Of a stretch of 43,265 nucleotides of DNA, positions 34 through 35,670 are shown piece after piece. The position numbers and the translations under genes were made by a program. Below the pieces are notes generated by a model. The model was not told the DNA's origin. It saw only the letters and a program-made list of their open reading frames with translations, and ran no database searches. The stretch comes from Ignavibacteria bacterium (GTDB lineage: Bacteria; Bacteroidota; Ignavibacteria; Kapaibacteriales; UBA2268): assembly GCA_012522895.1 (NCBI GenBank), contig JAAYJM010000203.1:1-43265 (forward strand), written 5' to 3'. Every line of letters begins with the position of its first letter. The stretch's first letter is position 1.

Positions 34-2751
34 ATGCTAAAAAAATTTTTCTTAATTGCATTACTAATATGCACGCCGCAGCTGCTTTGGTCGCAAGGAG
101 TATGGACGAAAATTGAAGACTTTGCCGGTAGTGCACGTTATTGTGCTGTTGCGTTTTGCATTGGCGATTATGGATATGTAGGAACGGGTTACGATGGCAC
201 TAACTACAAAAACGATTTGTGGGAATACAACATTTCTACAAATACCTGGACACAAAAAGCAGATTTACCTGGCGCTCCAAGGTCAGAAGCTGTTGGTTTT
301 GCTATTGGTAATTATGGTTATATCGGAACTGGGATGAGTGGTGTAAAAACCTATTGTTTAGATTTCTATGAATATAATCCAGCCACAAATACCTGGGCAC
401 AAAAAGCAAATTTCCCTGGAACTGCTGATTCATCTGCAAGATGTGGCGCTTTTGCTTTTGTTATTAACGGAAAAGGATATGTTGGAGGTGGGATAACGAA
501 TGCAGGTTATACAAATTCATTTTTCGAATATGATCCAGCTACTGATAGTTGGACGCAAAAAAAACAATTTCCTGGCACCGCCCGCAGTGGAGCTTCTGCT
601 TTTGCAATTGATTCCTTGGGATACGCAGGGACCGGATACTATCCACGAAAATATAATAATGACTTCTTTGAGTATAATCCCGCAACAGATACTTGGACGC
701 GAAAAGCTAACTTTGCTGGTGATGCTAGGTCGGATGCAGTTGGCTTTGCACTCGGAACAAAAGGGTATATTGGAATGGGATATGATGGTTTTAATGTATT
801 AGGTTTTTATCCAAATGATTTTTTTAAATATGATCCATCTACTGACAGCTGGACATTGCTTACTGATGATATTGGAATTACAGGAATGAATGCTTGTAGC
901 TTCGTTAACAATAATTATGCTTATGTTGGGCTTGGTTACGATGGAAGTATGAAGAGCAGCTTTGATAGATATGGACTGGGTATTATAACCGGTAATATAA
1001 TTAATGAACCATATTTTTTAGGTGATACTGTTATAGTCCCATTTACTGTAGAAGATGAATTTTTAGAAGGGAATGTATTTACTGCCCAGATATCAGACGC
1101 AAACGGTTCATTTTCAAACCCAATTGATATTGGAACACTAAACGGCGTTAATGCAGGGAATATCACTGCTACTATTCCCTTTGAAGCAGTAGGCGGAACT
1201 AATTATCGAATAAGGGTTGTTTCTTCAGATCCAATTATTAATGGTTCAAATAATGGAAAAGATATAAGAATTATTGGCAGTTGGACGCAAAAGCCAAATT
1301 TTGGAGGAGGAGCCCGCACTGATGCCGTAGGCTTCTCAATTGGCGATGAAGCTTATATTGGAACTGGACAAGTAAAAAAAAATATATCTAAAAATGATTT
1401 TTGGGAATATAATACAGCCACAAATCAGAGCTTACAAAAAGCAGATTTCGAGGGAGTAGAACGTTATAGTGCCGTAGGCTTCTCGATTGGCGCAAAGGGT
1501 TATATTGGACTGGGATTTAGTGATAGTGGAGGTTTTCAAAGTGATTTTTGGGAGTATGATCCTGAAAAAAATCAATGGACCCAAAAAGCTAACTTTGCTG
1601 GGGGCGCACGCAATAGAGCAGTTGGCTTTTCAATAGGCGCAAAGGGCTATTTAGGAACGGGATGCGATGAAGATGAAAAAAGTGATTTTTGGGAGTATGA
1701 CCCTGCTACTAACCAATGGACTCAAAAAGCAGACTTTGGCGGAGGCGCAAGAATAGATGCCGCAGCTTTTTCAATAGGCACAAAGGGCTATATTGGAACG
1801 GGATGGGATGGGAGTTTTTCTATGGATGACTTTTGGGAATATGACCCTGACGCAAATCAATGGACACAGAAAGCAAATTTTCCTGGAGGCAAACGGATAG
1901 AAACAGTAGGTTTTTCGATTGGAAATAAGGGCTATATCGGAACGGGATGGGATGGCTACTGCTATAATGACTTTTGGGAATATGACCCTGTTGCAGAACA
2001 ATGGGCTCAGAGAGCAAGTTTCGCTGGAGCCGCTCGCTTTGAAGCAGTAGGTTTTTCGATTAGAAATAAGGGCTATATTGGAACGGGATATAGCTTTTAC
2101 TATATTGGAGGAGGATATGAAAGTCGTTATTTAATGAGCGATATATGGGAGTATAGCACGCATTTAATAGTAACAAAGCCGCTTTCAAGCGATATATATA
2201 TTCAAGAAGATTCAGTTTTTGTTCCATATAAAGTTAATACTTCTTTCAATACTGGAAATATTTTTAAAGTTCAGCTATCGGATTCAAGTGGCTCTTTTGA
2301 AAACCCAGTTGATTTGGGTTCAGTTCAAGAAATTTCATCTGGAGAAATCACAACAAAAATTCCTATAAATACAGTTCCTGGCGAGCATTATAGAGTAAGG
2401 GTAGTAGGAACTGATCCTTTTACTATTGGCTATGATAACGGAAGCGACATTGTAATAGCAGATGCAACAGGTATTCAAGACGAAAGGGAATCTTCATTAA
2501 GCATAAACATCGTTCCAAATCCAGCTTCCAGCATTACCGCATTTGAATTTAGCATAGAAAACGAAGGCGATGCAGCTATAGAAATTTACACATTAAACGG
2601 TGAATTGATTGCAAAAATCGGAAGCAATTTCTACGCACCGGGAGTATATAAATTGAATTTTGATGCAAGCAGTTTGGTCAATGGAGTTTATAACGTTATA
2701 TTAAGTTCTTCGGGCAAAAGAGCTTCTTCGCTTATGATTATAAATAGGTAG
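34..2751 (+). CDS. Secreted Kelch-like beta-propeller repeat protein with T9SS (Por) C-terminal sorting domain
   Basis: 905-aa ORF with an N-terminal signal peptide (MLKKFFLIALLICTPQLLWSQ). About 14 degenerate ~50-aa repeats W(T/A)QKA.F.G.AR..AVGF.IG.KGYIGTG...DFWEYDP, typical of Kelch/galactose-oxidase-type blades. Two copies of a ~95-aa module (..FTAQISDANGSFSNPIDIG..YRIRVVSSDP and ..FKVQLSDSSGSFENPVDLG..YRVRVVGTDP). The last ~80 aa (IVPNPASSITAFEF...LMIINR) look like a T9SS secretion tail. Confidence 0.8.
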   Translation: MLKKFFLIALLICTPQLLWSQGVWTKIEDFAGSARYCAVAFCIGDYGYVGTGYDGTNYKNDLWEYNISTNTWTQKADLPGAPRSEAVGFAIGNYGYIGTGMSGVKTYCLDFYEYNPATNTWAQKANFPGTADSSARCGAFAFVINGKGYVGGGITNAGYTNSFFEYDPATDSWTQKKQFPGTARSGASAFAIDSLGYAGTGYYPRKYNNDFFEYNPATDTWTRKANFAGDARSDAVGFALGTKGYIGMGYDGFNVLGFYPNDFFKYDPSTDSWTLLTDDIGITGMNACSFVNNNYAYVGLGYDGSMKSSFDRYGLGIITGNIINEPYFLGDTVIVPFTVEDEFLEGNVFTAQISDANGSFSNPIDIGTLNGVNAGNITATIPFEAVGGTNYRIRVVSSDPIINGSNNGKDIRIIGSWTQKPNFGGGARTDAVGFSIGDEAYIGTGQVKKNISKNDFWEYNTATNQSLQKADFEGVERYSAVGFSIGAKGYIGLGFSDSGGFQSDFWEYDPEKNQWTQKANFAGGARNRAVGFSIGAKGYLGTGCDEDEKSDFWEYDPATNQWTQKADFGGGARIDAAAFSIGTKGYIGTGWDGSFSMDDFWEYDPDANQWTQKANFPGGKRIETVGFSIGNKGYIGTGWDGYCYNDFWEYDPVAEQWAQRASFAGAARFEAVGFSIRNKGYIGTGYSFYYIGGGYESRYLMSDIWEYSTHLIVTKPLSSDIYIQEDSVFVPYKVNTSFNTGNIFKVQLSDSSGSFENPVDLGSVQEISSGEITTKIPINTVPGEHYRVRVVGTDPFTIGYDNGSDIVIADATGIQDERESSLSINIVPNPASSITAFEFSIENEGDAAIEIYTLNGELIAKIGSNFYAPGVYKLNFDASSLVNGVYNVILSSSGKRASSLMIINR

Positions 2752-6725: not shown

Positions 6726-7883
6726 TTAAAAGGAAGGCGGAGTAAAAACCAAATCCTCGCTGCTAAAATGTTGCGATATTATTTCTTTCCAAACGCTTAT
6801 ATGTTCCGGCTTAACCTCTGTAGAATACTTGAAGTCTTTTATAAGGTTGTTTGTATAATTCTCTACGAATCTATGATAATTATCTATAAACCTCAAATAG
6901 TATTTTAAACTGTTTATTATTCCATTAACTATTATCTCAAAACCATATTCTTTTTTTATGCTTAGCACTAAATCATTGATATAGTTTTCTTCGTCTTCTG
7001 ATTCAAAATTGTTTGGATGAGTTGTTAAAATATAGTATTTAGAGATAGGTTGATTTTCAATTTTTTTTATTATATCAAAGATTAAATACCTATCAATGGA
7101 AATGTTATGCTTAATTTCAATCACCTCAAAAGGCTGTCTATCTTTATTGTATATTTCAATATCACCAAAGCTGTGCTTATCTAAAGATGTGTGAACGTTA
7201 AGCTTTAAAAGATTTTTATCTGAATACCTATTTACACTTTTAACTAATTCCTGATAGACTGAGTAAATAGCTAAAACAGGTAGCCGAGAGCTATGCTTCG
7301 TTGAAAAGTGCTTTTTAAGCATTGCAATAACGGTGTTTATATTTAGATCCGCAACTTTTTTTATATCTTTTAACGAGGCTAAAAGTATTTTATGTTCTTT
7401 TTGAGATAGTTCAAATAATCTATGAAAAATGTAAACCAAATATTGCCAAGGGCTTTGGTTTCTAACTTGAATGTTATGAAGAATTTGTAAGAACGCAATT
7501 TTTAGTTCGATGTTTCTAATTTTCAGAGCATTCCCTTCTTTTAACTTCCAAGGTATTTTTTCCCTTGTTGCCAAGGTTAGAAAAGCAGTTTCTTTGTTTG
7601 CATATCTCGGAAAATGCTCTTTAAAAAAAGGAGTAATGAAATTAGTATCTAAACTTCTTGCAGAATATCCATTTTCAAAGTCTACTCTATGTAAACGGAT
7701 ATCTTGATTAGGTTCTAAAATTTTTTTGACTAAGCTTGTTGTTAATGCAGAAACTAAAGATTTATTAGTATCAATATAATTTATCAAAACATCAACATTG
7801 TCAATTATTTCTTTTTTAACTCTTGATACTGTCAAGATTTTAGCTTCGTTTAATGCGTTTATTAAAACATCATCAGCGCTCAT
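6726..7883 (-). CDS. Putative Type II restriction endonuclease (family not recognised)
   Basis: 385-aa ORF whose ATG overlaps the TGA of the upstream methyltransferase gene (ATGA at 7883-7880, minus strand). Candidate PD-(D/E)XK motif GDIEIY-x-EVIEIKH (D-x14-E-x-K). I recognise no other family motif. Confidence 0.55.
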   Translation of the reverse strand: MSADDVLINALNEAKILTVSRVKKEIIDNVDVLINYIDTNKSLVSALTTSLVKKILEPNQDIRLHRVDFENGYSARSLDTNFITPFFKEHFPRYANKETAFLTLATREKIPWKLKEGNALKIRNIELKIAFLQILHNIQVRNQSPWQYLVYIFHRLFELSQKEHKILLASLKDIKKVADLNINTVIAMLKKHFSTKHSSRLPVLAIYSVYQELVKSVNRYSDKNLLKLNVHTSLDKHSFGDIEIYNKDRQPFEVIEIKHNISIDRYLIFDIIKKIENQPISKYYILTTHPNNFESEDEENYINDLVLSIKKEYGFEIIVNGIINSLKYYLRFIDNYHRFVENYTNNLIKDFKYSTEVKPEHISVWKEIISQHFSSEDLVFTPPSF

Positions 7884-8908
7884 ACAAATAAAGTCTCCAT
7901 TCTTATTTTATCAATTTCTTGAAGCCGTTTATTGGCATATTTATTATAATCGGAGTTGATTTCTATTCCAATATAATTTCGATTCAGTAGCTTTGCTGCA
8001 ACGCAAGTAGTTCCACTGCCGTTAAAAGGGTCAAGAACAACTGCACCTTCTTTTGTAAGCAACTTAATAATCTGCTGAACTATAAATACTGGGTAAACAG
8101 CAGGATGCGGGTTACCCTTAATAGATTCAACAGGACTTTCAATAACATCTTTTTTTAAAGCCTTACCATAGATTCGAATAATAGTAAAACCATTTTTTTT
8201 TATTTGCGTTTTCCTTCCCCCTTCTTGTCCACCAAACGGTTGGGAATGAATATTTCTTATTTTCATTCTAAAACTATCAAGATTGCCAGCTCTCACCTCT
8301 TTGATAACTTTTTCTAACTCTTTTTTTGCTTTAGATTTTTCTTGATCGTTAAGATCGGATTGCTTAATCAGTTCAAAATATTTTGTGCCAATATTAGCGC
8401 TGCTCCCGTTGTTTTTTCTTGTTTTAGCTTTTAGCAAGTCTAAATATTCCATAAAAGCGTCTTGATCAAAGTAGTAGTCATTTGACTTAGCGAATACGAA
8501 AAAAGGCTCAGTTGATGGCACTAGCTTTCTTTTATCTTGTCTGGGAGTAGGGTTCAACTTTGTCCATGTAATGTTATTGATTAGCTTTAAATTAAATTTT
8601 TCTTTTATCCCTATAGCAAATTTATACGGTATTAAAGACAGCGATCCATCTAAATATTTATCACCTATATTAAAAACAATGGTGCCGGTGTCCTTTGTTA
8701 CTCTAATGCATTCACTGAAAACAGAATATAAATTTTTTAAATATTCGTCTTCGGTCCGTTCGTTCCCTATACCAGAAAAACCATATTCTCTTTGCTGAAA
8801 GTAAGGCGGAGAAGTAACAATTAAATCAACTAAATCTGATGGAAAATATTTTAAAACATCTTCGCAGTCGCCAGTAATGATTATATTTTTTTTAATTAAG
8901 TTTTCCAT
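7880..8908 (-). CDS. Beta-class N4/N6 amino DNA methyltransferase (SPPY type, probably N4-cytosine)
   Basis: 342-aa ORF. Motif IV (LIVTSPPYFQQREY) lies near the N-terminus and the SAM-binding motif I (VVLDPFNGSGTTCVAA) near the C-terminus. This is the beta-class circular permutation, with a ~200-aa variable region between the motifs. Confidence 0.85.
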   Translation of the reverse strand: MENLIKKNIIITGDCEDVLKYFPSDLVDLIVTSPPYFQQREYGFSGIGNERTEDEYLKNLYSVFSECIRVTKDTGTIVFNIGDKYLDGSLSLIPYKFAIGIKEKFNLKLINNITWTKLNPTPRQDKRKLVPSTEPFFVFAKSNDYYFDQDAFMEYLDLLKAKTRKNNGSSANIGTKYFELIKQSDLNDQEKSKAKKELEKVIKEVRAGNLDSFRMKIRNIHSQPFGGQEGGRKTQIKKNGFTIIRIYGKALKKDVIESPVESIKGNPHPAVYPVFIVQQIIKLLTKEGAVVLDPFNGSGTTCVAAKLLNRNYIGIEINSDYNKYANKRLQEIDKIRMETLFV

Positions 8909-10449: not shown

Positions 10450-11169
10450 ATGAAACAAAGTAAATTATACGTATTCTCTGATTTTGACGGCACGATAACA
10501 AAGAAAGACATAGGCGACGACATTTTTGTTCAATTTGGAAAATTTGAGCCTTTGCATAGCCAGCTTTTAAATGAAGAAATAGATATTTTTACATATTGGA
10601 AAAGCATTTTTAAAACACTTGATGTTTCCTTTACAAAAGAAAAATTTGGAGAGTATTTAAAAAAAGCAGAAGTAGACGACTTTTTCTTTGATTTTGCAAA
10701 TTTTTGCAAAGCGTCTAATATTTAACTTTCAGTGGTAAGTGATGGCTTTGATGCTTATATTCAGCCAATTTTAAAAAAAGAAAATCTTGATTGGATAAAA
10801 GTATACTCAAATAAAATGCACGTTGATGAGAATAATAATTATTTCCCTGAGTTTTACGGAGTAAACGAGAGTTGCGTTTGCAAAAGTGCTTCTTGCAAAA
10901 GGAATACAATACTTTCACAAACTTCTGAGAATGCTTTGCTAATCTACATCGGCGATGGATATAGCGATTACTGCGCTGCCGCTCATTGTGATATTATTTT
11001 TGCAAAAAACAATTTAGCAACTTTTTGCAATGAAAATAAAATTCCGCATTATAATTTCAAGAATTTTTCCGATATTATGTTTATATTAAAAAATAGAATT
11101 TTGTCAAAAAAAATAAAAATTCGGAATCAAGCATTTTTGTTAAGAAAAAGAGCATTTGAAACTGAGTAG
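10450..11169 (+). pseudogene. HAD-IB family phosphatase (MtnX-like) interrupted by an in-frame TAA
   Basis: ORFs 10450-10725 and 10732-11169 are in the same frame, separated only by TAA at 10723-10725 (..CKASNI*LSVVSDGFD..). HAD motif I (VFSDFDGTIT) is in the first part. Motif II (VVSDG) and motif III/IV (IGDGYSDYCAA) are in the second. Confidence 0.7.
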
Positions 11170-12791: not shown

Positions 12792-13727
12792 TTATAAATT
12801 CTCAATTTCCTCTTTGTCCAAGCCAGTTAAAGCAATTATTGTTTCAATCGGTAAATTGCTTTGTTTTGCTTTTAAAGCTATTTCTACCGCTTTTTTCTTC
12901 TCGCCTATTTCAATTCCTTCCGCCTTGCCCTTAGCAAGTCCTTCCGCACGACCTTCCGCCTTGCCCTCAGCCCGACCTTTTATACTCCCTTCTATATTGC
13001 CGAGTTTATATGTAGATACGAACATACTTGCTTGATAGTGCAGCTCGAATTGATATGCTTCGTAAATATCCAGCTCATCTTTGCTAAGTTTAAGAATATC
13101 AAGTTTCTTTTTTGCTTCCGACAAACCCTTTGCGCTAAAATTTTCTTTTATTTCTTCATTTTTAAGGAAAAAGACCCACTCGTCTAAAGTGTTTTTTGCT
13201 ACATCGTCAAAATTATTTACTTTTATAATATAATATTCTGGAAAAATTGACGAAATTTCTTCTTTTTTAAATAAGATTTTTTGTTTATCGCTAAGTTTAA
13301 GCGAATCATTTTTGTTCAAGCCAATGAACTCCGTTTTACCTTTATAAAGGTAATCATTTCCTTGTCCTAAATCAAAATATACAATATTCACGGAAATGAT
13401 TTTTTTTACTTCCTCGAAAGCATTACCTTCTGCAATATGATCTACAACAAGTTTAGAGCTGCTATAAAGCATTCTTTGCATAAAATCAAGCTGGCGCTGG
13501 TTTTGCACTTCGATTATTATTAGCTCACCTTTTGTATTTTCTACGAGCAAGTCAACGCGATTAAATTTCGCAATAGCTTTATCTTTGTTCGTTTCGCTTT
13601 CTAAAAGCTGCTTGATTTTTACATCTTCTTTCAGCAATTCAGAAAGAAAGCCTTCCAAAATGCCAAAATTAGCTTTACTGCGTAAAATTTTCTTCGCTGC
13701 CCAATCAAAACTTATTAGCTTTCTCAT
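12792..13727 (-). CDS. Rpn-family / PD-(D/E)XK nuclease family putative transposase-like protein
   Basis: 311 aa. The N-terminal core (..FNRVDLLVENTKGELIIIEVQNQRQLDFMQRMLYSSSK..) is typical of the PDDEXK_2/TIGR01784-type family. The C-terminal low-complexity tract is GRAEGKAEGRAEGLAKGKAEG. Confidence 0.7.
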   Translation of the reverse strand: MRKLISFDWAAKKILRSKANFGILEGFLSELLKEDVKIKQLLESETNKDKAIAKFNRVDLLVENTKGELIIIEVQNQRQLDFMQRMLYSSSKLVVDHIAEGNAFEEVKKIISVNIVYFDLGQGNDYLYKGKTEFIGLNKNDSLKLSDKQKILFKKEEISSIFPEYYIIKVNNFDDVAKNTLDEWVFFLKNEEIKENFSAKGLSEAKKKLDILKLSKDELDIYEAYQFELHYQASMFVSTYKLGNIEGSIKGRAEGKAEGRAEGLAKGKAEGIEIGEKKKAVEIALKAKQSNLPIETIIALTGLDKEEIENL

Positions 13728-25919: not shown

Positions 25920-28079
25920 TTGAGTTATGATATGGCAACGATGTCTCCCGACTGGAATACTATTCAAAACCTTCAGCAAAAAACTACAGAAGGGGAATTG
26001 TATTTGTTGAAATTTCTCGATGAAAATCTTGATGAAAGCTATGAGGTATATTTTCAGCCTTTTTTAAACGGAGATAGGCCAGATATTGTTGTAATGAGAC
26101 AAGGCTCAGGCGTATTGATAATTGAAGTAAAAGATTGGAGCTTGCAGAACTATGTTAACAGATGTGGGAAATGGTTTGTTAAAAAAGATGGACAAGAACA
26201 CCTTGTTTTATCACCCTACAAACAAGTTAAAAAATATAAAGAAAACCTTTATAACTTACATATACCTACACTTTTAGAAAATAAAATAAGAAATCCAAAT
26301 TTCTTTTCAGTAGTGAATTGCGCCTTGTATTTCCACAATTCAAATAAGCTTGAATTTAATGAATTTAACAAAGAAGAAAGTCCTTCTAATACAAAGTGGA
26401 TACGAGGCTTAACCCCAGATCAACTTAAAAGGAATGGATATTTTCAAAGGTTTCTTTATGAAACTTATTTGAGCAGGCAATCTATATTGTTTTTAGAAGA
26501 TTTGTATAATAGCTTTAAAAGGTTTTTTCAACCACCAACTCATACGATCGAAGAAGTAATTGAAATTACTTATTCTAAAGAGCAGAAACAATTGATAGAA
26601 AGTAAAGCTGGTGATAAAAAGATAAGAGGAGTAGCTGGTTCAGGTAAAACTATGGTGTTGGCTAAAAGGGCTGTAAATTCACACTTGAGAACTCGAGAGA
26701 AAGTTTTAATCCTAACTTATAACATTACTTTAAAAAACTATATTCATGATTTATTAAGTAAAGTCAGAGAAAACTTTGCTTGGGAGCATTTTAAAATCAA
26801 TAATTACCATAATTTTATAAATCATTTTTTAAACAATGAAGGGATATCGAAAGAAGAGCTTTTTAAAAGTGTCTTGCGCCAAGATTCAAAACTTATAAAA
26901 TTTGCAAATAATAATAATTTTGATAATCTTCAAGAGCAAATAGTTGAGGACTTAGGCAAAGAGGATTTGTCAGAAATTTGGGAAAAAGCTGTTTACTCGA
27001 ATTTAAATTTTTTTTCAAAGCATGAAATTTCTGTTTCTGACAAATATGATTCAATTTTTATTGATGAGGTCCAAGATTATCATTATGAATGGTTAGAAAT
27101 AATTAAAAAATGTTTCTTGAACTCAGGCGGAGAATATGTGCTATTTGGGGATGAAAAGCAAAATATTTATGAAAGGCAATTAGAAACTGATAAAAAAGTA
27201 AAAACAAATATTTCTGGTAGGTGGGATGAATCACTAAAAAAATCATTTAGACTTCATAAAAATATAGCTTCAATTGCAGCCGATTTTCAGAAAGAATTTC
27301 TTAATAAATACGAATTTGACAGTATAGAAATAGTTGAACAGAAATCACTTTTTAATGAAAATATTTTAAAAATTGAGTATCATGAGATTCGAAATGAGCC
27401 AGCAGTTATAGCAAATTTTATTAATTCATACATTGAAACTAACGGTATAAGTCCAAATGATGTAGCAGTTTTAGGCACAGCCGTTTCATTTTTAAGAAAT
27501 ATTGATTTTGAATTTAGGCAAGTAAGTAGAGAAAGGACTTCTACCACTTTTGAAACACAAGAAATGTTTGAGCTATTATTCCGAAAAGATTACAATTCCA
27601 TTTCAAAGGAGGATGAAGAAATCAAGCTAAATAAAAATTTTTTAGATGGTAATCTTCAAATTGCATTAAGAAAAGTTTTATCTAAAATAGATTTTATTGA
27701 AAACCCTGAAATATACACTGAAGTGCCAGATGAGGTTGGTTTGAATAATGATTACCGAGTAGACAATTTAGTAGAAAAAATTACTCCAAGAATTAATATG
27801 GAAATTGAAAATATAAGAAAGAACAAAAAAGTACATTTTTGGATGAATTCAGGTGTGGTTAAAATGTCAACAATTCACAGCTTTAAAGGTTGGGAAGTTC
27901 CTACATTGTTTTTATTGTTAGATAATATGAATGATAGATTTCCAAAGCATGAACTTATTTATACAGCTATAACAAGATGCAGATTTAATCTTGTTGTATT
28001 AAGCATTGGCTCTCAAACATATTCAGACTTCTTTAAACGTAAATGCAATATATTTCAACCTATTAATGGCGTTGATTGA
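25920..28079 (+). CDS. NERD-domain nuclease fused to UvrD/Rep-like SF1 helicase
   Basis: 719-aa ORF. The track start is TTG at 25920; the first ATG is at 25932. NERD/PD-(D/E)XK-like N-terminus ..GDRPDIVVMRQGSGVLIIEVKDW... Walker A GVAGSGKTMVLAKRA. Motif II SIFIDEVQDYH. C-terminal UvrD_C motifs ..MSTIHSFKGWEVPTLFLLL.. and ..LIYTAITRCRFNLVVL... Confidence 0.85.
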   Translation: MSYDMATMSPDWNTIQNLQQKTTEGELYLLKFLDENLDESYEVYFQPFLNGDRPDIVVMRQGSGVLIIEVKDWSLQNYVNRCGKWFVKKDGQEHLVLSPYKQVKKYKENLYNLHIPTLLENKIRNPNFFSVVNCALYFHNSNKLEFNEFNKEESPSNTKWIRGLTPDQLKRNGYFQRFLYETYLSRQSILFLEDLYNSFKRFFQPPTHTIEEVIEITYSKEQKQLIESKAGDKKIRGVAGSGKTMVLAKRAVNSHLRTREKVLILTYNITLKNYIHDLLSKVRENFAWEHFKINNYHNFINHFLNNEGISKEELFKSVLRQDSKLIKFANNNNFDNLQEQIVEDLGKEDLSEIWEKAVYSNLNFFSKHEISVSDKYDSIFIDEVQDYHYEWLEIIKKCFLNSGGEYVLFGDEKQNIYERQLETDKKVKTNISGRWDESLKKSFRLHKNIASIAADFQKEFLNKYEFDSIEIVEQKSLFNENILKIEYHEIRNEPAVIANFINSYIETNGISPNDVAVLGTAVSFLRNIDFEFRQVSRERTSTTFETQEMFELLFRKDYNSISKEDEEIKLNKNFLDGNLQIALRKVLSKIDFIENPEIYTEVPDEVGLNNDYRVDNLVEKITPRINMEIENIRKNKKVHFWMNSGVVKMSTIHSFKGWEVPTLFLLLDNMNDRFPKHELIYTAITRCRFNLVVLSIGSQTYSDFFKRKCNIFQPINGVD

Positions 28080-28213: not shown

Positions 28214-28239
28214 CTGTCCAACTTGCTGGTAGCAGGGCA
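28214..28239 (+). repeat. 26-nt direct repeat, left copy (CTGTCCAACTTGCTGGTAGCAGGGCA)
   Basis: 24/26 identical to 35482-35507, in the same orientation. Weaker similarity extends ~8 nt upstream (GCTAAAAG vs GTTAAAT). Confidence 0.75.
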
Positions 28240-28445
28240 TACAGATTATTGCTAATGATACATTAACAGAAGAAAGATTTGGCAGAATACTGCATATTAG
28301 CGGCCTTCAAAATCGAAGTAGGTATTTTGACGATGAACTTATTTATACAACAATAACAAGGGCAAGATTTAACATAATCATACTTAATCTTGGCGTGATG
28401 AAATACCATCAATTTTTTGAAAGTTCAATAAGAAATGGAATATAA
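28233..28445 (+). pseudogene. C-terminal remnant of a second UvrD-like helicase gene
   Basis: Open frame of 70 codons bounded upstream by TAG (28230-28232), with no start codon. It encodes ..ERFGRILHISGLQNRSRYFDDELIYTTITRARFNIIILNLGVMKYHQFFESSIRNGI*. This aligns with the last ~60 aa of the 719-aa helicase (..TIHSFKGWE...HELIYTAITRCRFNLVVLSIGSQTYSDFFKR..; 13/21 identical over the ELIYT..G core). Confidence 0.6.
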
Positions 28446-28579: not shown

Positions 28580-31500
28580 ATGTTATTAGACAACAAAACA
28601 AGCATTGCCGGTAGAAAATACTTTAAAGTGTTTGATTATTTAAAGGCTTATGCAGGCGAAAACGGAACGATGAATATAGTTACCGGCTACTTTACAATTT
28701 ATGCTTTATCTGAAATTTACGATAAGCTATGCAAGAAAAATGTTAAGGATGAGCAAGAAGACGGGAATATACAATGCAAATTTAGATTGCTGCTTGGGTA
28801 TTTGATAGCAAAATATGACAAAAAGGATAAAATTATTGATTTACTGAGAGAAGATCTAGATATTGACAAAACTCTTAGGTTAAGCTCGTATGCTAAAAAA
28901 GCTATAAAATTTCTTGAGCAAGATGCAGTTCAAATTAAGCATATTTCAGATAGCTTTTGCCACGCTAAAGCCTTCATTTATGAAGAAGATGACAGTCGCC
29001 ATAAGTTCTATATTGTCGGAAGTTCGAATTTGACGGAAGCCGGTCTTGGAATTCAAAGGTCATCAAATATTGAGCTTAATATCGCTATTTCAGGTGGAGA
29101 TTCAGACTATGAGGATATTTTGCAATGGTTCAATCAACTTTGGAAAAACACTGCGAGCGACAAAATCAAACAGAATGGAGGTCGAAAAGTTGACCTAAAA
29201 GAACACTTAATCGAGAAGATTCAAGATTTTTTCATTAAGCGCAGCCCTAAAGATATTTATTATAAGATTCTTTATGAGCTATTTAAAAAAGATTTTGATA
29301 ACGGGATACTTGATCCTGTTTTTCAAAGAGAAATTGCTTTTGTCCAAGATACAAGGCTTTACAAAGCTCTTTACCCCTTCCAAAAAAAAGCAGTCATTAG
29401 CTTAATAAAAATGCTTCTAAAAAGAAATGGTGCTATTCTTGCTGACGCTGTGGGTCTTGGTAAAACATGGACTGCGCTTGCTGTTATGAAATATTTTGAA
29501 ATGCAAGGATATAGAATTGTTGTCTTTTGTCCTAAAAAACTTGCTCAAAATTGGAAACAGTACTTATATGGAAATAGATCTAAGTTCGATAAAGATAAAT
29601 TGGATTATTGGGTTCGCTTCCACACCGATTTACAGGACGAAAGATTAGACCGCTACGATAGGAAGCTAAATGCCTTGCAAGGGAATCCCAAAATATTGTT
29701 TGTTATTGACGAAAGCCATAATTTAAGAAACGATAAGTCATCAAGATATGGATTTCTTGTGGAAAATGTATTGAAGAAAAATAGAGATGTAAAAGTATTG
29801 CAGCTTTCGGCTACTCCGATTAATAATAGATTGATTGATGTTAGAAATCAATTCAAATTGATTGTAAAAGGAGAGGATGCTGGGTTTGAAAAATCAGATG
29901 TCGAAATAAAAAGCCTTGAAAGACTTTTTGCAAGAGCTCAAAGAGATTTCAAAGAGTGGCAGGAAAATGATGATAGAAAAATATGTGATTTTATATCAAA
30001 ATTAGATAATAAATTTTTTACATTAACGGATTCATTAATCGTTGCTCGAACTAGGCCTATCATAGAAAAAGAATTTGACAGCTTAAGGTTTCCAAAAAAA
30101 GAAAAACCGAAAAACGTATTCATAAGCCCTGAGAATATTGGTTCCCTTCGGGCTTTTGATGAGATTTTAAACGCTTGTGCAGTAAATTTAACTGCGTATA
30201 GACCAAGCGAATATACAGAAGTGGCAAAACCTGTAAGCGTTCTGGAAGACCAACAACAACGTGAAAAGTTTTTATGCAAAATGATGTATATTCTTTTTGT
30301 TAAAAGATTGGAATCGAGCTGGTATTCATTTAAAATTACAATTAATAAAATTTTAGAGCAGCACCAAAAAGCACTTAAAAAAGTCAACAATTACTTGAAA
30401 AGCACAAGTCGTTCGTCAGACATTGAGATTGACAGCGTTGATTATGAACAATTTGAAGAGTATGAAGATGAGCCTGAATTTGAACTTGGGGCAAAGAATC
30501 CAATCAGAATTTCAAGCATATCGAATATACAATTATTTAAAGAGCATCTTGAAAAAGACATAGAAAAAATGGAAAACTTAAAAGAAAATTTAATAAAGTA
30601 TTCTGAAACAGTTCAAAATGATTATAAATGCGATACTAAAATCAATAAATTGATAGAAATAATTAGAGAAAAACAAGAGAAATCAAATAATAAAAAAGTC
30701 GTTATCTTTACTACATTTAGCGATACAGCTAAATATATTTTCGACACACTAAAAAAAGTTGGACTAAAAAGGATTGCTTTCGTTAGCGGTAGCAAGTGCA
30801 AAACTGACGAACCTTTAAGTAATAAATCTGATAGATTTGATGCAATTCTCGAGCGCTTTGCCCCCTTCACTAAACTTTTCAACGAAAAAGATTGGTCTAC
30901 GCTTTATGAAGAAAATTCAATTGAGACAATACAAGATTATGAAGAATGGAAAAAATTTGTAATAAAGCACGACAAGGATACCCGCGTAAAACTTGAAAAT
31001 CCAATCGACATACTTATCGCAACAGACTGCTTAAGCGAGGGACAAAACTTGCAAGATGCCGATTGCGTGATTAATTACGATATTCACTGGAATCCCGTTC
31101 GACTCGTGCAAAGGTTTGGGCGTATAGATAGAATTGGCTCGCCAAATGAATCAATTATTGGCATTAACTTTTGGCCCGCTAAGGACTATGAAGATTATTT
31201 GAGGCTTAAAGAAAGAGTAGAAACAAGAATGGCACTTATGACAGTGGTCGGTGCTGAAGTCGATGAAGAACTGACGCAGGAATTGCGAGAGATGCTGGAA
31301 GATAATCCGCTTCTTGCGAAGCAAACTGAAAAAATGCTCGAACAACTTCAAGAAACTTGGGAGGGAATTGAGCAAGAAAACGAAAAATTTGGAATGAGCG
31401 ATTTATCACTTGAGTTGCATAGACAAGATTTTTATGATAAGATGATGGAAAACAGAAAAGAATATGAATCTATTCCAAATGGCGTTTTTTCTGGATTCAA

Positions 31501-31942
31501 AGCAAAACCAGATGCCGATTTCCCAAATTTACCGAATGGCATAATCGCTGCTCTCGGCTATCCAAAAAATAGAATAGAAGAAGAAAATTTTTATTACGAT
31601 GAAATACATTTGCTTTACATTGACTCAAAAGGCACAAGTTTATTTAAAAATAGTAGTGAAATTTTAGCTATATTGAGAAAACATAAAGAAGAGGATAGAT
31701 ATGTCCCTGATAAAATTGAAAACGTTGACAAAGATGAAATTAAAATACTTGCAGATTTGCTTAAAAAAGTAATAAAAGGACAAAGAGGAGAGCAAGCTGT
31801 AGAAGAAATAAATAATCTTTTTCAATATGGCGCCCTCCCGAGAAACCAGGGAGAAAATATGCTGATTGAAGAAAAATTTAAACCAGAAAATTTCGACTTA
31901 ATTACTTGGGTAGTTGTTTCTGATAATAAGGATATTGAATAA
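28580..31942 (+). CDS. PLD-family (single HKD) nuclease domain fused to SNF2-family SF2 ATPase/helicase
   Basis: 1120 aa with the Shine-Dalgarno-like AAGGGG 10 nt upstream. N-terminal HKD-type motif CHAKAFIYE..x..[15 protein letters not shown]2 motifs: [41 protein letters not shown], then a long inter-lobe insertion. C-lobe ..[14 protein letters not shown].., ..[43 protein letters not shown]. Confidence 0.85.
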
Positions 31943-34900
31943 ATGGATTTAACTAAATTTAACTCTGAAAATCTTTTTGAAGCTGGGCTTTCTTTTTTTA
32001 AGCAGCTTAGCGTTCCTTTGAAACTTATGACTAAGGAAAAAGTTTCAGCAGAAAGCATTTTAAAAAATCATTTTAAGCCATTGCCAGTTTTTAAATCTAT
32101 CGTAGAGACTTATTTTCTTGGAACTATTGAAGAATCAGTTTTTGAAACGACTTCAAATGAAGAAAAAACTGAGCAAAGCTTCGATGAATTTATTGAAGAA
32201 GTTGATGAGAAATATAAAATCATTATGATTTTTGCTCTTAAACTTGAAAATTATGCCCCCACGAGAACGGAAATAGCAAGCCTTGTAAGAGCTTTCAATA
32301 GAGCAAGCAAAGAAGCACCAGTGATTTTATTGCTCAAATATGAAAACGGGGACAGCAGCTTTCTTACTTTTTCTACCATAGAAAGAACTGCCTACACCCA
32401 AAAATGGCGAGAAGGTGAAAAGTTGGGCAAAGTCTCTATGCTCAAAGACATTAATATCGAAAAGCCACACGCCGGGCATTTGAAAATTCTGCAAGATTTG
32501 AAATTGAAGTCCGATGTAAAATGCTTTGAGGCTCTATACAAACAATGGAAAGAAGTTTTTGACATTCAGTTGCTCAATAAACAATTTTATAAAGAAATTG
32601 CAAATTGGTATTTCTGGGCTAAATCGGTAGTTAAATTCCCAACGATTGCAGGCACTGAGGAAAAAACTCAGGCTGACGCAAGTTTAATTCGCTTGCTTAC
32701 TCGAATTATTTTCATTTGGTTCTTGAAAGAAAAAAAACTTGTTCAAGATGAATTGTTTAATAAAAATTCCCTTGATACTATTTTAGATTACAAAGACGAA
32801 ACCGGCTCAACCTATTACAAAGCTATATTGCAAAATTTGTTCTTTGCGACATTAAATACAGCAATGAAAAAGGACAAGCCAAAAAGTAGGATTTTTATTG
32901 AAGACGCAAAGAAATATGGCTATATTAATGACGGATACCTCCAATCTGGCTATTATAGATATAAAAGATTTATTAAAAAGCCCGACACGTTGCTGAAATT
33001 GTTTGCAAATATTCCTTTTCTCAATGGCGGACTTTTTGAGTGCTTGGATAGTAAAATTGATGGAAAAGAAATTAGAATTGATTGCTTTTCCGACAATAAG
33101 AAAAATGAATCGCTTTTAAAAGTGCCAGATGAATTATTCTTTAGCCAAGAAAAAGATAATGATCTTAATAAAGATTATGGAACTAAAAATAAAATATACA
33201 AAGTATGCGGCTTAATCAATATTTTAAATAGGTATAAATTTACTATTGATGAAAATACGCCATTGGAAGAAGACATTGCTCTCGACCCAGAATTACTGGG
33301 AAGGGTGTTTGAAAATCTTTTAGCAAACTACAATCCCGAAACTGGCGACACTGCTCGAAAGGCTACAGGCTCATTTTACACCCCTCGCGAAATCGTAAAT
33401 TATATGGCCGATGAGAGTTTAATCGCATACCTCGAAGAAAAATTTGAAAAAAACAAAGAAAGCACAGATCATCCCTCAAATAGGGAAAGGCTGAAAAAAC
33501 TGCTTACTTATGCCGAAGATGAGCCGGACTTTAACGAAAACGAAGTCCAAACAATTATTGATGCTATTGATAAAATTAAAATACTCGACCCCGCCTGCGG
33601 CTCCGGCGCTTTCCCTATGGGGATACTTCATAAATTAGTGCATATACTTCATAAACTTGACCCTGAAAACGAAAGATGGAAGAAAAAACTTATCGAAAAA
33701 ACGCCTTACGAAATTCGGACTGAAACTGAAAAAGCACTCGAAGGAAAGCCACTTGATTACATCCGCAAACTCGGACTTATTGAGTCCTGCATCTATGGTG
33801 TTGATATTCAGCCGATTGCCATTCAAATTGCTAAACTTAGATTTTTTATCTCCTTAATCGTTGAGCAAAAAATTGACGACTCGAAAGAAAATCGCGATAT
33901 TAGACCTTTGCCCAATCTTGAAACTAAATTTGTTGCTGCTAATACGCTTATTGGATTAGAACAAGACGATAGCTTAAAATCCGAATATGTGGAGAAAGCT
34001 GAACATAATTTATTCGATATTAGAAGAAAAATTTTTTATTCTAATAGCTCAAGCGTAAAAAAAGTTTTGCAAAAAAAGGAAAAAGAAGCCCGAGAAAATC
34101 TAAAAGAAGCATTGAAACAGAGCGGCTTTAATAACCAAATAGCTGAAAAAATTGCATCTTGGGATCCATTCGAGCAAAACAGCTCGGCTAATTGGTTCGA
34201 CCCTGAATTTATGTTCGGTCTGAAAAATGGTTTCGATATTGTGATTGGAAATCCACCTTATGGTGCGAAATATCCAGAAAAATATAAAAAATACTTCAAG
34301 GATAACTATGAATCTGCCAAAACAAAAGAAATAATTGAAAATGGACAAAAAGTAAAGTTAAAAGGTTCGCTTGATACTTTTTCGCTGTTTATTGATAAAA
34401 GCATGCAAATTATTAATAACAACTCCTTCTTGACTTTTATAGTGCCTTTGGCTATTACTTCAAGTGACTCAATGTTATCTTTACATAGGATAATGTTTGA
34501 AAAATGCGAAACAATTAAAGTATCAACTTATTCTGACCGACCCAAAAAGATTTTTGACAATGCCGAGCAAGCTGTATCGATCCTAAGTTTTCAAAAAAAC
34601 AACAAACAGAATACAAACTTATTTACAACAAAGGTTAATAAAAAGTATTCAGATACAAGTATCAGCACAGTATTAGAAAAACTGAAGTTTATTAACTCTA
34701 AGGATTTCGTGTTACCAGGAAGAATACCAAAAATTGGTTTACCTATAGAACTTAAAATTTTGGAAAAGATTTTTACAATAAAAACAACAATCAAAGACCT
34801 GCTGGTTAAAGAGAATGGGAATCCAATTTATTACAGAGCGGCTGGCGGTAGATATTTTAAGGTGATTACAAATTATACAACTAATTCATCAGCAGAAAAG

Positions 34901-35284
34901 TATCTTATTTTTGACAAAAATATTTGTAATACAATTGGAGCAATACTAAGCACCAATTTATACTATTGGTTTTATCATATTTACTCTGATACTTTAAATA
35001 TGAAGTTGTATGAACTAGAAATTATGCCAATTCCAGTTGATAAACTAGTTCACCAAAAAGACAAAATTGAAAGATTATATGATGAATACCTAAAAGACCT
35101 GCACAAGAACTCAAAGATAAAAAAAGTTAACTATTCCCACATTTCTGAATATCGTGAGTATTATGCCAGAAAGTCCAAGCATATTATAGATCAAATAGAT
35201 TTAGCCATACAAGATGCATACGGTTTTACAGATGAAGAAATAAATTTTATAATAAATTATGATATTGAATTCAGGCTGGGTTAA
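31943..35284 (+). CDS. Large gamma-class N6-adenine DNA methyltransferase (Eco57I/PglX/DrmMI-like) with C-terminal target-recognition domain
   Basis: 1113 aa. The ATG directly abuts the TAA of the upstream gene (TAAATG). Motif X ATGSFYTPREIVNYM, motif I ILDPACGSGAFPMG and motif IV DIVIGNPPYG occur in gamma-class order. The C-terminal ~330 aa has a TaqI-C-like TRD signature (..ILSTNLYYWFYHIYS..YELEIMPIPV..) and a typical tail YGFTDEEINFIINYD. The N-terminal ~450 aa are unassigned. Confidence 0.85.
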   Translation: MDLTKFNSENLFEAGLSFFKQLSVPLKLMTKEKVSAESILKNHFKPLPVFKSIVETYFLGTIEESVFETTSNEEKTEQSFDEFIEEVDEKYKIIMIFALKLENYAPTRTEIASLVRAFNRASKEAPVILLLKYENGDSSFLTFSTIERTAYTQKWREGEKLGKVSMLKDINIEKPHAGHLKILQDLKLKSDVKCFEALYKQWKEVFDIQLLNKQFYKEIANWYFWAKSVVKFPTIAGTEEKTQADASLIRLLTRIIFIWFLKEKKLVQDELFNKNSLDTILDYKDETGSTYYKAILQNLFFATLNTAMKKDKPKSRIFIEDAKKYGYINDGYLQSGYYRYKRFIKKPDTLLKLFANIPFLNGGLFECLDSKIDGKEIRIDCFSDNKKNESLLKVPDELFFSQEKDNDLNKDYGTKNKIYKVCGLINILNRYKFTIDENTPLEEDIALDPELLGRVFENLLANYNPETGDTARKATGSFYTPREIVNYMADESLIAYLEEKFEKNKESTDHPSNRERLKKLLTYAEDEPDFNENEVQTIIDAIDKIKILDPACGSGAFPMGILHKLVHILHKLDPENERWKKKLIEKTPYEIRTETEKALEGKPLDYIRKLGLIESCIYGVDIQPIAIQIAKLRFFISLIVEQKIDDSKENRDIRPLPNLETKFVAANTLIGLEQDDSLKSEYVEKAEHNLFDIRRKIFYSNSSSVKKVLQKKEKEARENLKEALKQSGFNNQIAEKIASWDPFEQNSSANWFDPEFMFGLKNGFDIVIGNPPYGAKYPEKYKKYFKDNYESAKTKEIIENGQKVKLKGSLDTFSLFIDKSMQIINNNSFLTFIVPLAITSSDSMLSLHRIMFEKCETIKVSTYSDRPKKIFDNAEQAVSILSFQKNNKQNTNLFTTKVNKKYSDTSISTVLEKLKFINSKDFVLPGRIPKIGLPIELKILEKIFTIKTTIKDLLVKENGNPIYYRAAGGRYFKVITNYTTNSSAEKYLIFDKNICNTIGAILSTNLYYWFYHIYSDTLNMKLYELEIMPIPVDKLVHQKDKIERLYDEYLKDLHKNSKIKKVNYSHISEYREYYARKSKHIIDQIDLAIQDAYGFTDEEINFIINYDIEFRLG

Positions 35285-35481: not shown

Positions 35482-35507
35482 CTGTCCAATTTGCTGGTAG
35501 CGGGGCA
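35482..35507 (+). repeat. 26-nt direct repeat, right copy (CTGTCCAATTTGCTGGTAGCGGGGCA)
   Basis: 24/26 identical to 28214-28239. It lies ~200 nt after the methyltransferase stop and 90 nt before tRNA-Met. Confidence 0.75.
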
Positions 35508-35596
35508 CCTTCTAACTTACTAAGAAAGCTATGTCTGGGCTTTTTTTATATCTTGCAAAAAAAATAATATTCTATTGAAAAAAAAGGTGTTTCTTG

Positions 35597-35670
35597 TGGG
35601 CCTGGAGGGACGTGAACCCCCAACCTACGGATTATGAGTCCGGCGCTCTAACCAGTTGAGCTACAGGCCC
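35597..35670 (-). tRNA. tRNA with anticodon CAT (elongator tRNA-Met, or lysidine-type tRNA-Ile2)
   Basis: Reverse complement reads GGGCCTGTAGCTCAACTGGTTAGAGCGCCGGACTCATAATCCGTAGGTTGGGGGTTCACGTCCCTCCAGGCCCA. 7-bp acceptor stem GGGCCTG/CAGGCCC with a paired 1-72 (so not an initiator). D-arm GCTC..GAGC. Anticodon loop CTCATAA. Confidence 0.85.

Follow-up and report, generated by a model that had tools for sequence, protein, structure and literature searches.

A phospholipase D–SNF2 protein and the DNA methyltransferase encoded next to it look like an uncharacterised, very widespread restriction system that is methylation-based and dependent on nucleoside triphosphates

Type ISP (Type I single polypeptide) restriction enzymes carry a nuclease, a motor, a methyltransferase and a domain for target recognition (TRD) in one polypeptide (PMC3874165). 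[quoted passage not shown] SauUSI provides a precedent for an N-terminal PLD nuclease, with the motif HxK(x)4E, fused to a superfamily 2 (SF2) motor and forming a dimer via its PLD domains (PMC7913695), and the Hma system of PADLOC consists of three genes, which encode a helicase, a 5-methylcytosine methyltransferase and an ATPase (PMC8565338). In this work we analysed a 43,265-nt stretch of DNA from an Ignavibacteria bacterium (assembly GCA_012522895.1, contig JAAYJM010000203.1, forward strand), called the window below, in which two abutting open reading frames (ORFs) at 28580–35284 encode a PLD–SNF2 protein (ORF1) and a large N6-adenine methyltransferase (ORF2). The pair looks like a nucleoside triphosphate-dependent, methylation-based restriction system that is uncharacterised and very widespread, and we put at roughly 0.6 the probability that ORF1 and ORF2 form one two-protein, ATP-dependent, methylation-guarded restriction system. 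A first-pass annotation, made from the sequence alone, had proposed a methylation-guarded, ATP-driven PLD nuclease, and the comparative evidence agrees with this model. The pair is laid out as follows.

28580–31942, plus strand: ORF1, PLD(HKD)–SNF2 nuclease-ATPase, 1120 amino acids, ATG start
31943–35284, plus strand: ORF2, DUF4391-like domain, helical domain, gamma-class N6-adenine methyltransferase and TRD, 1113 amino acids, ATG start
31940–31945, plus strand: TAAATG junction, the TAA of ORF1 (31940–31942) abutting the ATG of ORF2 at 31943 (...gaa TAA ATG gat...)

Both the ORF coordinates and the zero-spacer TAAATG of the first-pass annotation were exact when compared with the ORF list and the sequence.

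The pairing of ORF1 with ORF2 is near-obligate. A scan for ORF1 relatives, one genome per species, gave 80 related loci from many bacterial phyla and one archaeon, and the count of partners was restricted to the 52 genome loci whose downstream sequence reaches 4.5 kb or more. A partner was present in all 52: an ORF2-type gene in 46, downstream and on the same strand in nearly all of them and upstream in locus L036, and a DUF4391 gene with Type III Mod and Res genes in the other six. In the reciprocal test, a metagenome search with the N-terminal 450 amino acids of ORF2 gave 67 loci with enough upstream DNA, and a PLD–SNF2 gene lay directly upstream on the same strand in 64 of them. The expectation that homologues would be co-conserved as neighbours thus holds when tested in both directions. 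In 76 of 129 pairs the relatives of ORF1 and ORF2 overlap or are at most 40 nt apart, and no ORF1–ORF2 fusion was found among the related loci or the homologues listed, the longest listed ORF2 relatives having about 1560 amino acids. The family is spread patchily over many bacterial phyla and archaea, and members turn up on plasmids, beside Tn7-type transposition genes and in a small number of phage records.

In 36 of the 129 pairs (about 28%) another gene is embedded between the two; examples are loci L002, L007, L009, L022, L024, L041, L044, L052, L054 and L064. The embedded genes include YhcG/DUF1016 (PADLOC PDC-S02), DUF4062 with HATPase_c_4, and Abi_2, which is consistent with the reported nesting of defence genes inside other immune loci (bioRxiv 10.1101/2024.01.29.577857). 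No consistent third gene was found: the most frequent extra cluster is present in 13 of the 80 genome loci, and the occasional extra genes encode DUF4062 (13 loci), YhcG/PDC-S02 (8 loci) and an SMC/AAA ATPase (7 loci). This SMC_N/AAA ATPase has about 540 amino acids and mostly directly follows the methyltransferase gene.

The features of ORF1 are the following.

28661–29149, plus strand: single-HKD PLD-type nuclease domain, about residues 28–190, with Pfam PLDc_2 over residues 102–188
28961–28984, plus strand: HxK(x)4E motif, H128-A-K130-AFIY-E135 (HAKAFIYE)
29018–29029, plus strand: GSSN motif, G147-S-S-N150
29345–29869, plus strand: SNF2 ATPase lobe 1, about residues 256–430, with motif I GLGKT (292–296), motif II DESH (377–380) and motif III SATP (410–413)
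29870–30964, plus strand: long insertion between the ATPase lobes, about residues 431–795, conserved across the family, with no Pfam family spanning the whole region
30965–31414, plus strand: ATPase lobe 2, about residues 796–945, with QRFGRIDR (844–851) and Pfam Helicase_C over 806–853
31415–31939, plus strand: conserved C-terminal domain, about residues 946–1120, with many invariant positions in alignment A1

ORF1 had been described as a single-HKD PLD domain joined to a complete SNF2 motor, and this description stands: the motifs are present and the Pfam matches exceed their cut-offs (PLDc_2, 31.0 bits for a cut-off of 27; SNF2-rel_dom, 42.1 for 24.9; ResIII, 40.2 for 22.5; Helicase_C, 57.9 for 23.5). 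The protein carries the PLD/HKD superfamily signature, HxK(x)4(D/E) followed by GSxN, in one copy per chain, and residues H128, K130 and G147–N150 are invariant in the family alignment A1. It also carries the hallmarks of the SNF2 family (a SNF2-related N-lobe, a Helicase_C lobe and motifs I, II, III and VI), and G294/K295/T296, D377/E378/H380, R845, R848 and R851 show no variation across all 75 aligned relatives. Sequence and profile searches of the PDB returned only SNF2 remodellers and RapA for ORF1, the best profile matches being SNF2-family remodellers over positions 250–410; residues 686–761 of the insertion between the lobes gave a weak PDB match to the Hef helicase (1wp9), and the C-terminal domain had no match in Pfam or the PDB.

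The family of ORF1 is large and uniform in length, about 1125 amino acids, with more than 7000 homologues at E<=1e-10 among the 8000 candidates scored. The only full-length match of ORF1 in PADLOC is a model called ‘C3a139 HKD+Snf2’ (1.3e-72, residues 82–1044), a label without functional assignment that goes back to a catalogue, published in 2018, of genes seen in the neighbourhood of type III CRISPR loci (PMC6546367). The PADLOC matches to DrmD, BrxHI/II, DpdE and HmaA are confined to the ATPase lobes, and the best NCBIfam match, the DISARM DrmD equivalog NF038317, is broken into three partial stretches and reaches 147.7 bits where the cut-off is 610. The pair keeps the place outside the characterised subtypes that it had been given before, as NCBIfam scores are far below cut-off and the full-length PADLOC match is to an unnamed cluster.

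ORF2 is divided as follows.

31943–32557, plus strand: N-terminal DUF4391-like alpha/beta domain, about residues 1–205, the proposed adaptor to ORF1
32558–33277, plus strand: helical domain, about residues 206–445, with an invariant NGGLF motif at 33023–33037 (invariant columns in alignments A2 and A3)
33278–34657, plus strand: gamma-class N6-adenine methyltransferase domain, about residues 446–905 (Pfam Eco57I and N6_Mtase; motifs invariant in alignment A3)
33365–33385, plus strand: motif X, TGSFYTP, residues 475–481
33587–33613, plus strand: motif I, DPACGSGAF, residues 549–557
34250–34261, plus strand: motif IV, NPPY, residues 770–773
34658–35281, plus strand: C-terminal TRD, about residues 906–1113, with a fold match to PglX, CamA and MmeI

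The gamma-class motifs, in the order X–I–IV already noticed in the first-pass annotation, are confirmed by the motifs themselves and by Pfam, with 84.7 bits for Eco57I (cut-off 25.3), 44.4 for N6_Mtase and 33.9 for MmeI_Mtase (cut-off 27). AlphaFold2 modelled the full-length protein with a predicted local distance difference test score (pLDDT) of 82 and a predicted template modelling score (pTM) of 0.80, and residues 1–450 with a pLDDT of 84 and a pTM of 0.75. The best Foldseek matches of the full-length model in the PDB were PglX/BrxX of BREX (bacteriophage exclusion; 8c45, 8q56 and 9ewz; E 7e-15 to 1e-13, 811–1112 aligned columns), followed by CamA, MmeI (5hr4, 8e-10), DrdV (7lo5, 1e-9) and M.BseCI; LlaBIII, a Type ISP enzyme, ranked about 49th (E 1e-7, template modelling (TM) score 0.2–0.26). 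Those that align over more than 1000 columns (PglX/BrxX and MmeI) extend through the C-terminal part of ORF2. A TaqI-C-like TRD had been proposed for this part, and fold matches support a TRD there; the TaqI-C label did not hold, Pfam TaqI_C being undetected in ORF2 and present in some homologues only. By sequence the likenesses are lower: PDB sequence and profile searches gave TaqI, DrdV and BrxX, all weak, and the NCBIfam models of BREX PglX, which have cut-offs of 400 and 900, gave 35.3 and 31.4 bits. The best PADLOC models were those of REase_MTase_IIG (6.5e-59), which start to match at residue 351 or later, with DrmMI (5.6e-21, methyltransferase core only) and PglX lower.

The stretch of about 450 amino acids in front of the methyltransferase, left unassigned before, can now be divided into the DUF4391-like domain and the helical NGGLF domain, the latter mostly helical with a few short strands in the AlphaFold2 models. 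The model of residues 1–450 has no PDB match at E<1e-3, so that no nuclease fold is recognisable in it, and Pfam gave no nuclease family for these residues at any E up to 10; matches to a YTH domain, CorA and an exopolyphosphatase (TM score 0.1–0.2, root-mean-square deviation 9–17 Å) were rejected as noise. As ORF2 is without a recognisable nuclease, the PLD domain of ORF1 is the only candidate nuclease of the pair. At the end of the DUF4391-like domain, residues 175–179 (32465–32479) form a PHxGH motif in which H176 and H179 are invariant, together with an invariant R148; the motif is not evident in the single printed alignment to a free-standing DUF4391 protein. Some ORF2 homologues have additional domains, a Vsr/DUF559-type endonuclease domain in P0181 and, in P0204 and P0210, a Y1 (IS200-type) transposase domain that may have been inserted.

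Matches that are statistically modest but consistent suggest that the N-terminal domain of ORF2 is related to DUF4391. In several ORF2 homologues Pfam DUF4391 matches residues 105–220 or so with 23–27 bits (E 4e-5 to 6e-6), compared with a cut-off of 29.9. In hhalign the family of ORF2 N-domains aligned with the DUF4391 proteins that stand alone in the alternative loci described below at E 6.8e-5 and 63% probability, and a hidden Markov model (HMM) of seven such proteins matched the N-termini of many ORF2 relatives (E 3e-7 to 1e-3, Z=1e6); the reverse HMM search, from the ORF2 N-domain to free-standing DUF4391 proteins, also gave matches. The best 150 matches of an ORF2 N-domain profile were all of the ORF2 type. 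The adaptor domain is carried by 1230 clusters at 50% identity.

The boundaries of the inherited unit were mapped from the pairwise identities across 84 ORF1/ORF2 pairs, for which permutation gave r = 0.00 ± 0.055. Identity in ORF1 correlated with identity in ORF2 at r = 0.90 for residues 1–210, compared with 0.25 for residues 215–700 and 0.22 for residues 745–1113. Each part of ORF1 correlated with the ORF2 N-domain at 0.85–0.89, including the PLD domain, 3 kb away, and the C-terminal domain (residues 946–1120, r = 0.89). In a sliding window, r was 0.79–0.88 up to ORF2 residue 210 or so, fell to 0.38 and then to about 0.25. The sharp break at about residue 205 indicates that the inherited unit is the PLD–SNF2 protein plus the DUF4391-like domain. 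As judged from these alignments, the methyltransferase and specificity parts are shuffled independently of this unit. In the closest relatives the half of ORF2 that holds the NPPY lobe and the TRD (745–1113) has been swapped, with 16–30% identity compared with 65–74% over residues 215–700, as expected of a diversifying specificity.

A second, apparently unnamed type of cluster bears directly on the role of these domains. Its first gene encodes a SNF2 protein whose PLD domain is degenerate, and genes for DUF4391, a Type III Mod and usually a Type III Res follow; the cluster was found in bacteria and archaea, at seven genome loci (L033, L053, L066, L069, L070, L071 and L075) and at plasmid loci L161–L166, among them plasmids of Escherichia coli (NZ_CP029688), Enterococcus hirae (NZ_MK798156) and M. 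hollandica (pMETHO01). The SNF2 protein is homologous to ORF1 over its full length, and the DUF4391 unit is in the equivalent position, always between the SNF2 gene and the methyltransferase. The differences are that DUF4391 is a separate protein of about 250 amino acids, whereas ORF2 carries its DUF4391-like domain in-chain, that a Type III Mod (Pfam N6_N4_Mtase) takes the place of the Eco57I-type gamma-class methyltransferase, and that the Res helicase-endonuclease is present. The records of the Prokaryotic Genome Annotation Pipeline for plasmids of E. coli, Enterococcus hirae, Shewanella, Acinetobacter, Desulforapulum and the archaeon Methanomethylovorans give the order helicase-related protein, DUF4391, site-specific DNA-methyltransferase, and Res (‘DEAD/DEAH box helicase’) comes next in all of them but that of Desulforapulum, whose gene table may be incomplete. 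In A. gerneri the SNF2–DUF4391–Mod cluster directly follows TnsA/TniB/TniQ-type transposition genes. No Type III Mod or Res was found adjoining the pair in the window. These sequence comparisons suggest that the shared SNF2–DUF4391 module also serves Type III systems.

The two types of cluster differ in the state of the nuclease. The catalytic H and K of the HKD motif are kept in 65 of the 66 relatives outside the Res-containing architecture (an ORF2-type partner is confirmed for most of these), and other residues stand in their place at all 13 of the loci where a Type III Res with its endonuclease domain is encoded; the ATPase motifs are unchanged in all 75 aligned relatives. Of the indirect evidence for the PLD domain as effector nuclease of the two-gene form, this retention of the HKD motif without Res, and its loss with Res, is the strongest. 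Neither the DUF4391-like adaptor domain nor the Mod/Res architecture had been noticed in the first-pass annotation, and together they change the classification of the system.

In the model that we favour, ORF2 would be the specificity and modification subunit, similar to PglX and Type IIL enzymes, with a C-terminal TRD and no nuclease of its own. To judge from its closest relatives, its target is probably a short asymmetric site of which it methylates one strand; PglX, MmeI and DrmMI likewise recognise and methylate asymmetric sites. The DUF4391-like domain may dock ORF2 to ORF1, as its co-inheritance with ORF1 and the alternative architecture suggest. ORF1 would be the effector, a SNF2-type translocase on double-stranded DNA that consumes ATP when the complex has encountered a site without methylation. 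A PLD active site requires two HKD halves, so that cleavage should require two molecules of ORF1; the single-HKD PLD domains would pair to form this active site, for which SauUSI is the nearest precedent, either constitutively or by collision, as in Type ISP enzymes.

The natural working model here is that of Type ISP enzymes, with an ATP-driven translocating nuclease and an asymmetric site whose hemimethylation guards against it (PMC3874165). The first-pass annotation had gone further and considered a split Type ISP enzyme. The functional order is indeed that of LlaGI and LlaBIII, with a nuclease, an SF2 ATPase, a gamma-class methyltransferase and a TRD, but the likeness is one of analogy and not of kinship: Type ISP enzymes are one chain with an Mrr-like PD-(D/E)xK nuclease, whereas here there are two ORFs, a PLD nuclease domain, a motor that scores as SNF2 and a DUF4391-like adaptor domain at the junction, and LlaBIII, far down among the fold matches of ORF2, was not found by the PDB sequence and profile searches (E up to 0.01 and 1). 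Hma was rejected as a relative, as the methyltransferase here is an N6-adenine gamma-class enzyme, there is no third ATPase gene, and HmaA (2.9e-20) matches only the Helicase_C lobe of ORF1. A broader proposal, which we make tentatively and with the odds somewhat against it, is that DUF4391 is a general coupling adaptor that plugs one SNF2 lineage into unrelated methyltransferases, and that the PLD-armed form is a new and widespread type of restriction–modification system, with a nuclease active only on dimerisation or collision of the motors, and not a variant of Type ISP, BREX or DISARM.

Several points weigh against a restriction system of this kind. What the comparisons show is the domain content, the intact catalytic motifs, the obligate pairing of the genes, the limits of the modules and the keeping or loss of the HKD motif; methylation and its guarding, ATPase activity, translocation, cleavage and its mode, and contact between the two proteins are properties that we infer, and the co-inheritance of ORF1 with the N-domain of ORF2 denotes a shared module and is not proof of binding. 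The relationship to DUF4391 carries modest statistics, and ORF2 of the window itself has no Pfam DUF4391 (PF14335) match at E up to 10. The closest structural relatives of ORF2 are PglX and BrxX of BREX, a system for which cleavage of DNA is not known. PglX alone does not methylate and depends on partners (PMC11341690), so that the pair could behave in a BREX-like and not a restriction–modification-like manner. Class 1 DISARM from which the methylases are deleted shows no autoimmunity (bioRxiv 10.1101/2021.12.28.474362), and among named defence HMMs those of DrmD and DrmMI come nearest to the pair. No named system or curated family with the composition PLD–SNF2 plus methyltransferase was found, and the pair is not described in Iyer 2008, in Vassallo 2022 or in the PADLOC papers, including that on Hma; the literature check is incomplete, and an earlier characterisation is possible.

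The main rival explanation is accordingly a BREX- or DISARM-like exclusion without classical cleavage, in which ORF2 would mark self, the SNF2 motor would block replication or would remodel or evict proteins on the invading DNA, and the PLD domain would have a minor or non-nucleolytic part. PglX/BrxX, the best fold match, shares with ORF2 a large gamma-class N6-adenine methyltransferase, a non-nuclease N-region, a helical domain, NPPY, a C-terminal TRD and a dependence on partner proteins, and the nearest named defence HMMs of ORF1 are DrmD and BrxHI/BrxHII. Class 1 DISARM likewise has a SNF2-like helicase gene (DrmD) directly followed by a large N6-adenine methyltransferase gene (DrmMI), and its own PLD protein, DrmC, is dispensable, in a system that is also non-autoimmune without its methylases (bioRxiv 10.1101/2021.12.28.474362). 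PglX has an N-terminal helical bundle where ORF2 has the alpha/beta DUF4391-like domain, and the sequence similarity of the two is marginal; the BREX partners PglZ, BrxC, BrxB and BrxL are absent here, and the partner of ORF2 carries a nuclease. The first-pass annotation had mentioned a stripped-down DISARM, but this is no more than a resemblance: the DrmD score is far from its cut-off, DrmA, DrmB and DrmC are all absent from the window, the PLD domain is fused to the SNF2 protein, and ORF2 fits Type IIG models better than DrmMI. Its statement that the window lacks DrmA, DrmB/DUF1998, PglZ, BrxC, HsdS and a Type III Res holds for all scanned window ORFs of at least 80 amino acids, and in the related genome loci no extra cluster exceeds 13 of 80. 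The retention of the HKD motif in nearly all relatives without Res, and its replacement in all loci with Res, fits an effector nuclease and not a dispensable domain. We therefore consider exclusion without cleavage rather unlikely.

ORF1 and the DUF4391-like domain could alternatively be an accessory module, a ‘booster’ or anti-evasion device for restriction–modification enzymes that otherwise suffice by themselves; ORF2 would then be a complete, self-cutting Type IIG/IIL enzyme. Like MmeI, DrdV and Eco57I, ORF2 combines a methyltransferase with a TRD and has Eco57I and MmeI_Mtase domains in Pfam, its best PADLOC models are of the IIG type, and in the alternative architecture SNF2 and DUF4391 adjoin a complete Type III Mod/Res system. 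However, Type IIL/IIG enzymes have their own N-terminal PD-ExK nuclease and use neither ATP nor a motor, whereas ORF2 has the DUF4391-like domain at that position; the PADLOC matches begin at residue 351 at the earliest and leave this domain uncovered, and neither a PD-(D/E)xK nor any other nuclease domain was found in ORF2 with Pfam or with AlphaFold2 and Foldseek. Lacking a recognisable nuclease, ORF2 is not a Type IIG enzyme. In addition, ORF2 relatives almost never occur without ORF1 (64 of 67 have it). This explanation is quite improbable.

ORF1 could also be a modification-dependent Type IV nuclease similar to SauUSI, with a methyltransferase that is an unrelated or antagonistic neighbour, which we hold to be very improbable. 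SauUSI, which translocates on DNA and dimerises through its PLD domains, so that the active site is formed (PMC7913695), shares with ORF1 the N-terminal single PLD domain, the HxK(x)4E form and an SF2 ATPase, and the C-terminal domain of ORF1 (946–1120) could be a reader. SauUSI, unlike the two-protein pair, consists of one protein, which includes an SRA-type TRD, and its target is methylated DNA; ORF1 is of the SNF2 type and paired with a methyltransferase, neither an SRA domain nor another modified-base reader was detected in it in Pfam and PDB searches, and SauUSI was not among its sequence-level PDB matches. The pairing with the methyltransferase is obligate, the history of ORF1 is tied to the N-domain of that methyltransferase, and a host methyltransferase that made the nuclease’s own target would be self-destructive.

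The setting of the pair is consistent with a role in defence. The window is a chromosomal piece of about 35% GC with genes for Por_Secre_tail proteins (type IX secretion system), ftsQ-ftsA-ftsZ, lnt and dus, and the pair lies within a low-GC stretch, with housekeeping genes on one side and a tRNA-Met gene on the other. The features around it are as follows.

25920–28079, plus strand: gene for a NERD nuclease fused to a UvrD-like superfamily 1 helicase, 719 amino acids, TTG start, local GC 27–30%
28214–28239, plus strand: 26-nt direct repeat, left copy (exactly two copies in the window, 0 expected by chance)
35482–35507, plus strand: 26-nt direct repeat, right copy, 88 nt before tRNA-Met
35596–35670, minus strand: tRNA-Met, the sole Rfam match in the window

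The direct repeat, CTGTCCAAyTTGCTGGTAGCrGGGCA, brackets the two-gene cassette, and on its left side a weaker similarity continues across the aligned flanks. A tRNA-derived attachment (att) repeat was considered and rejected, as the repeat is not part of the tRNA. In the 500-nt spacer upstream of ORF1, a UvrD-like 3′-end remnant (28333–28372) is 85% identical to positions 27949–27988 of the NERD–UvrD gene. The bracketing repeats and this remnant suggest scars of an insertion or exchange of the cassette at a hot spot beside tRNA-Met. The NERD–UvrD gene, just upstream of the pair, has ‘C3a187 NERD+UvrD’ as its best PADLOC match (3.2e-63), with GajB models far lower; no homologue of it was found among 160 related loci, and it is probably an independent single-gene defence candidate. 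Both C3a models are labelled ‘type III CRISPR-associated’, but no CRISPR array was found in the window. Scans of the window for sigma-70 promoters and terminators gave results no better than chance. The defence context thus comprises this adjoining candidate, the PDC-S02/YhcG, Abi_2 and DUF4062 genes embedded in the pair elsewhere, and the occurrence of the family on plasmids. A pair with no role in defence, either a RapA-like remodeller with an orphan methyltransferase for epigenetic or chromosome maintenance, as the weak matches of ORF1 to RapA and chromatin remodellers might suggest, or an inactive remnant, has a very slim chance given the patchy distribution across phyla and archaea, the plasmids, few phage records and Tn7-type neighbours, the shuffled TRD, the defence genes embedded or adjoining, the low GC, tRNA neighbour and bracketing repeats, and two intact ORFs with all their motifs.

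Elsewhere in the window, an N6_N4_Mtase DNA methyltransferase of 342 amino acids (7880–8908, minus strand) overlaps by 4 nt the downstream ORF of 385 amino acids (6726–7883, minus strand), which has no Pfam match, and these two genes are likely to be a separate Type II restriction–modification pair. The short ORFs at 10450–10725 and 10732–11169, both on the plus strand, match the N- and C-terminal halves of a HAD-family phosphatase and could be one gene broken by a stop codon or frameshift, or by a sequencing error. A 141-nt tandem repeat (3.9 copies, 77% matches, 1542–2089) encodes Kelch repeats in a protein of 905 amino acids (ORF 34–2751, plus strand), and a PD-(D/E)XK_2 family ‘transposase-like’ ORF of 311 amino acids (12792–13727, minus strand) lies amid housekeeping genes.

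If the two-protein restriction system that we propose is real, it would be among the commoner uncharacterised methylation-based defence modules, and the combination of a SNF2 motor with a PLD nuclease would be a fourth way to build an ATP-dependent restriction enzyme. DUF4391 would gain a testable role, that of a coupler between motor and methyltransferase, and the loss of the HKD motif alongside Res is a natural experiment on the exchange of effector nucleases between systems. The pair would also explain unassigned N6-methyladenine motifs in methylomes, and in Bacteroidota, as in many other groups, it would have to be reckoned with as a barrier to transformation.

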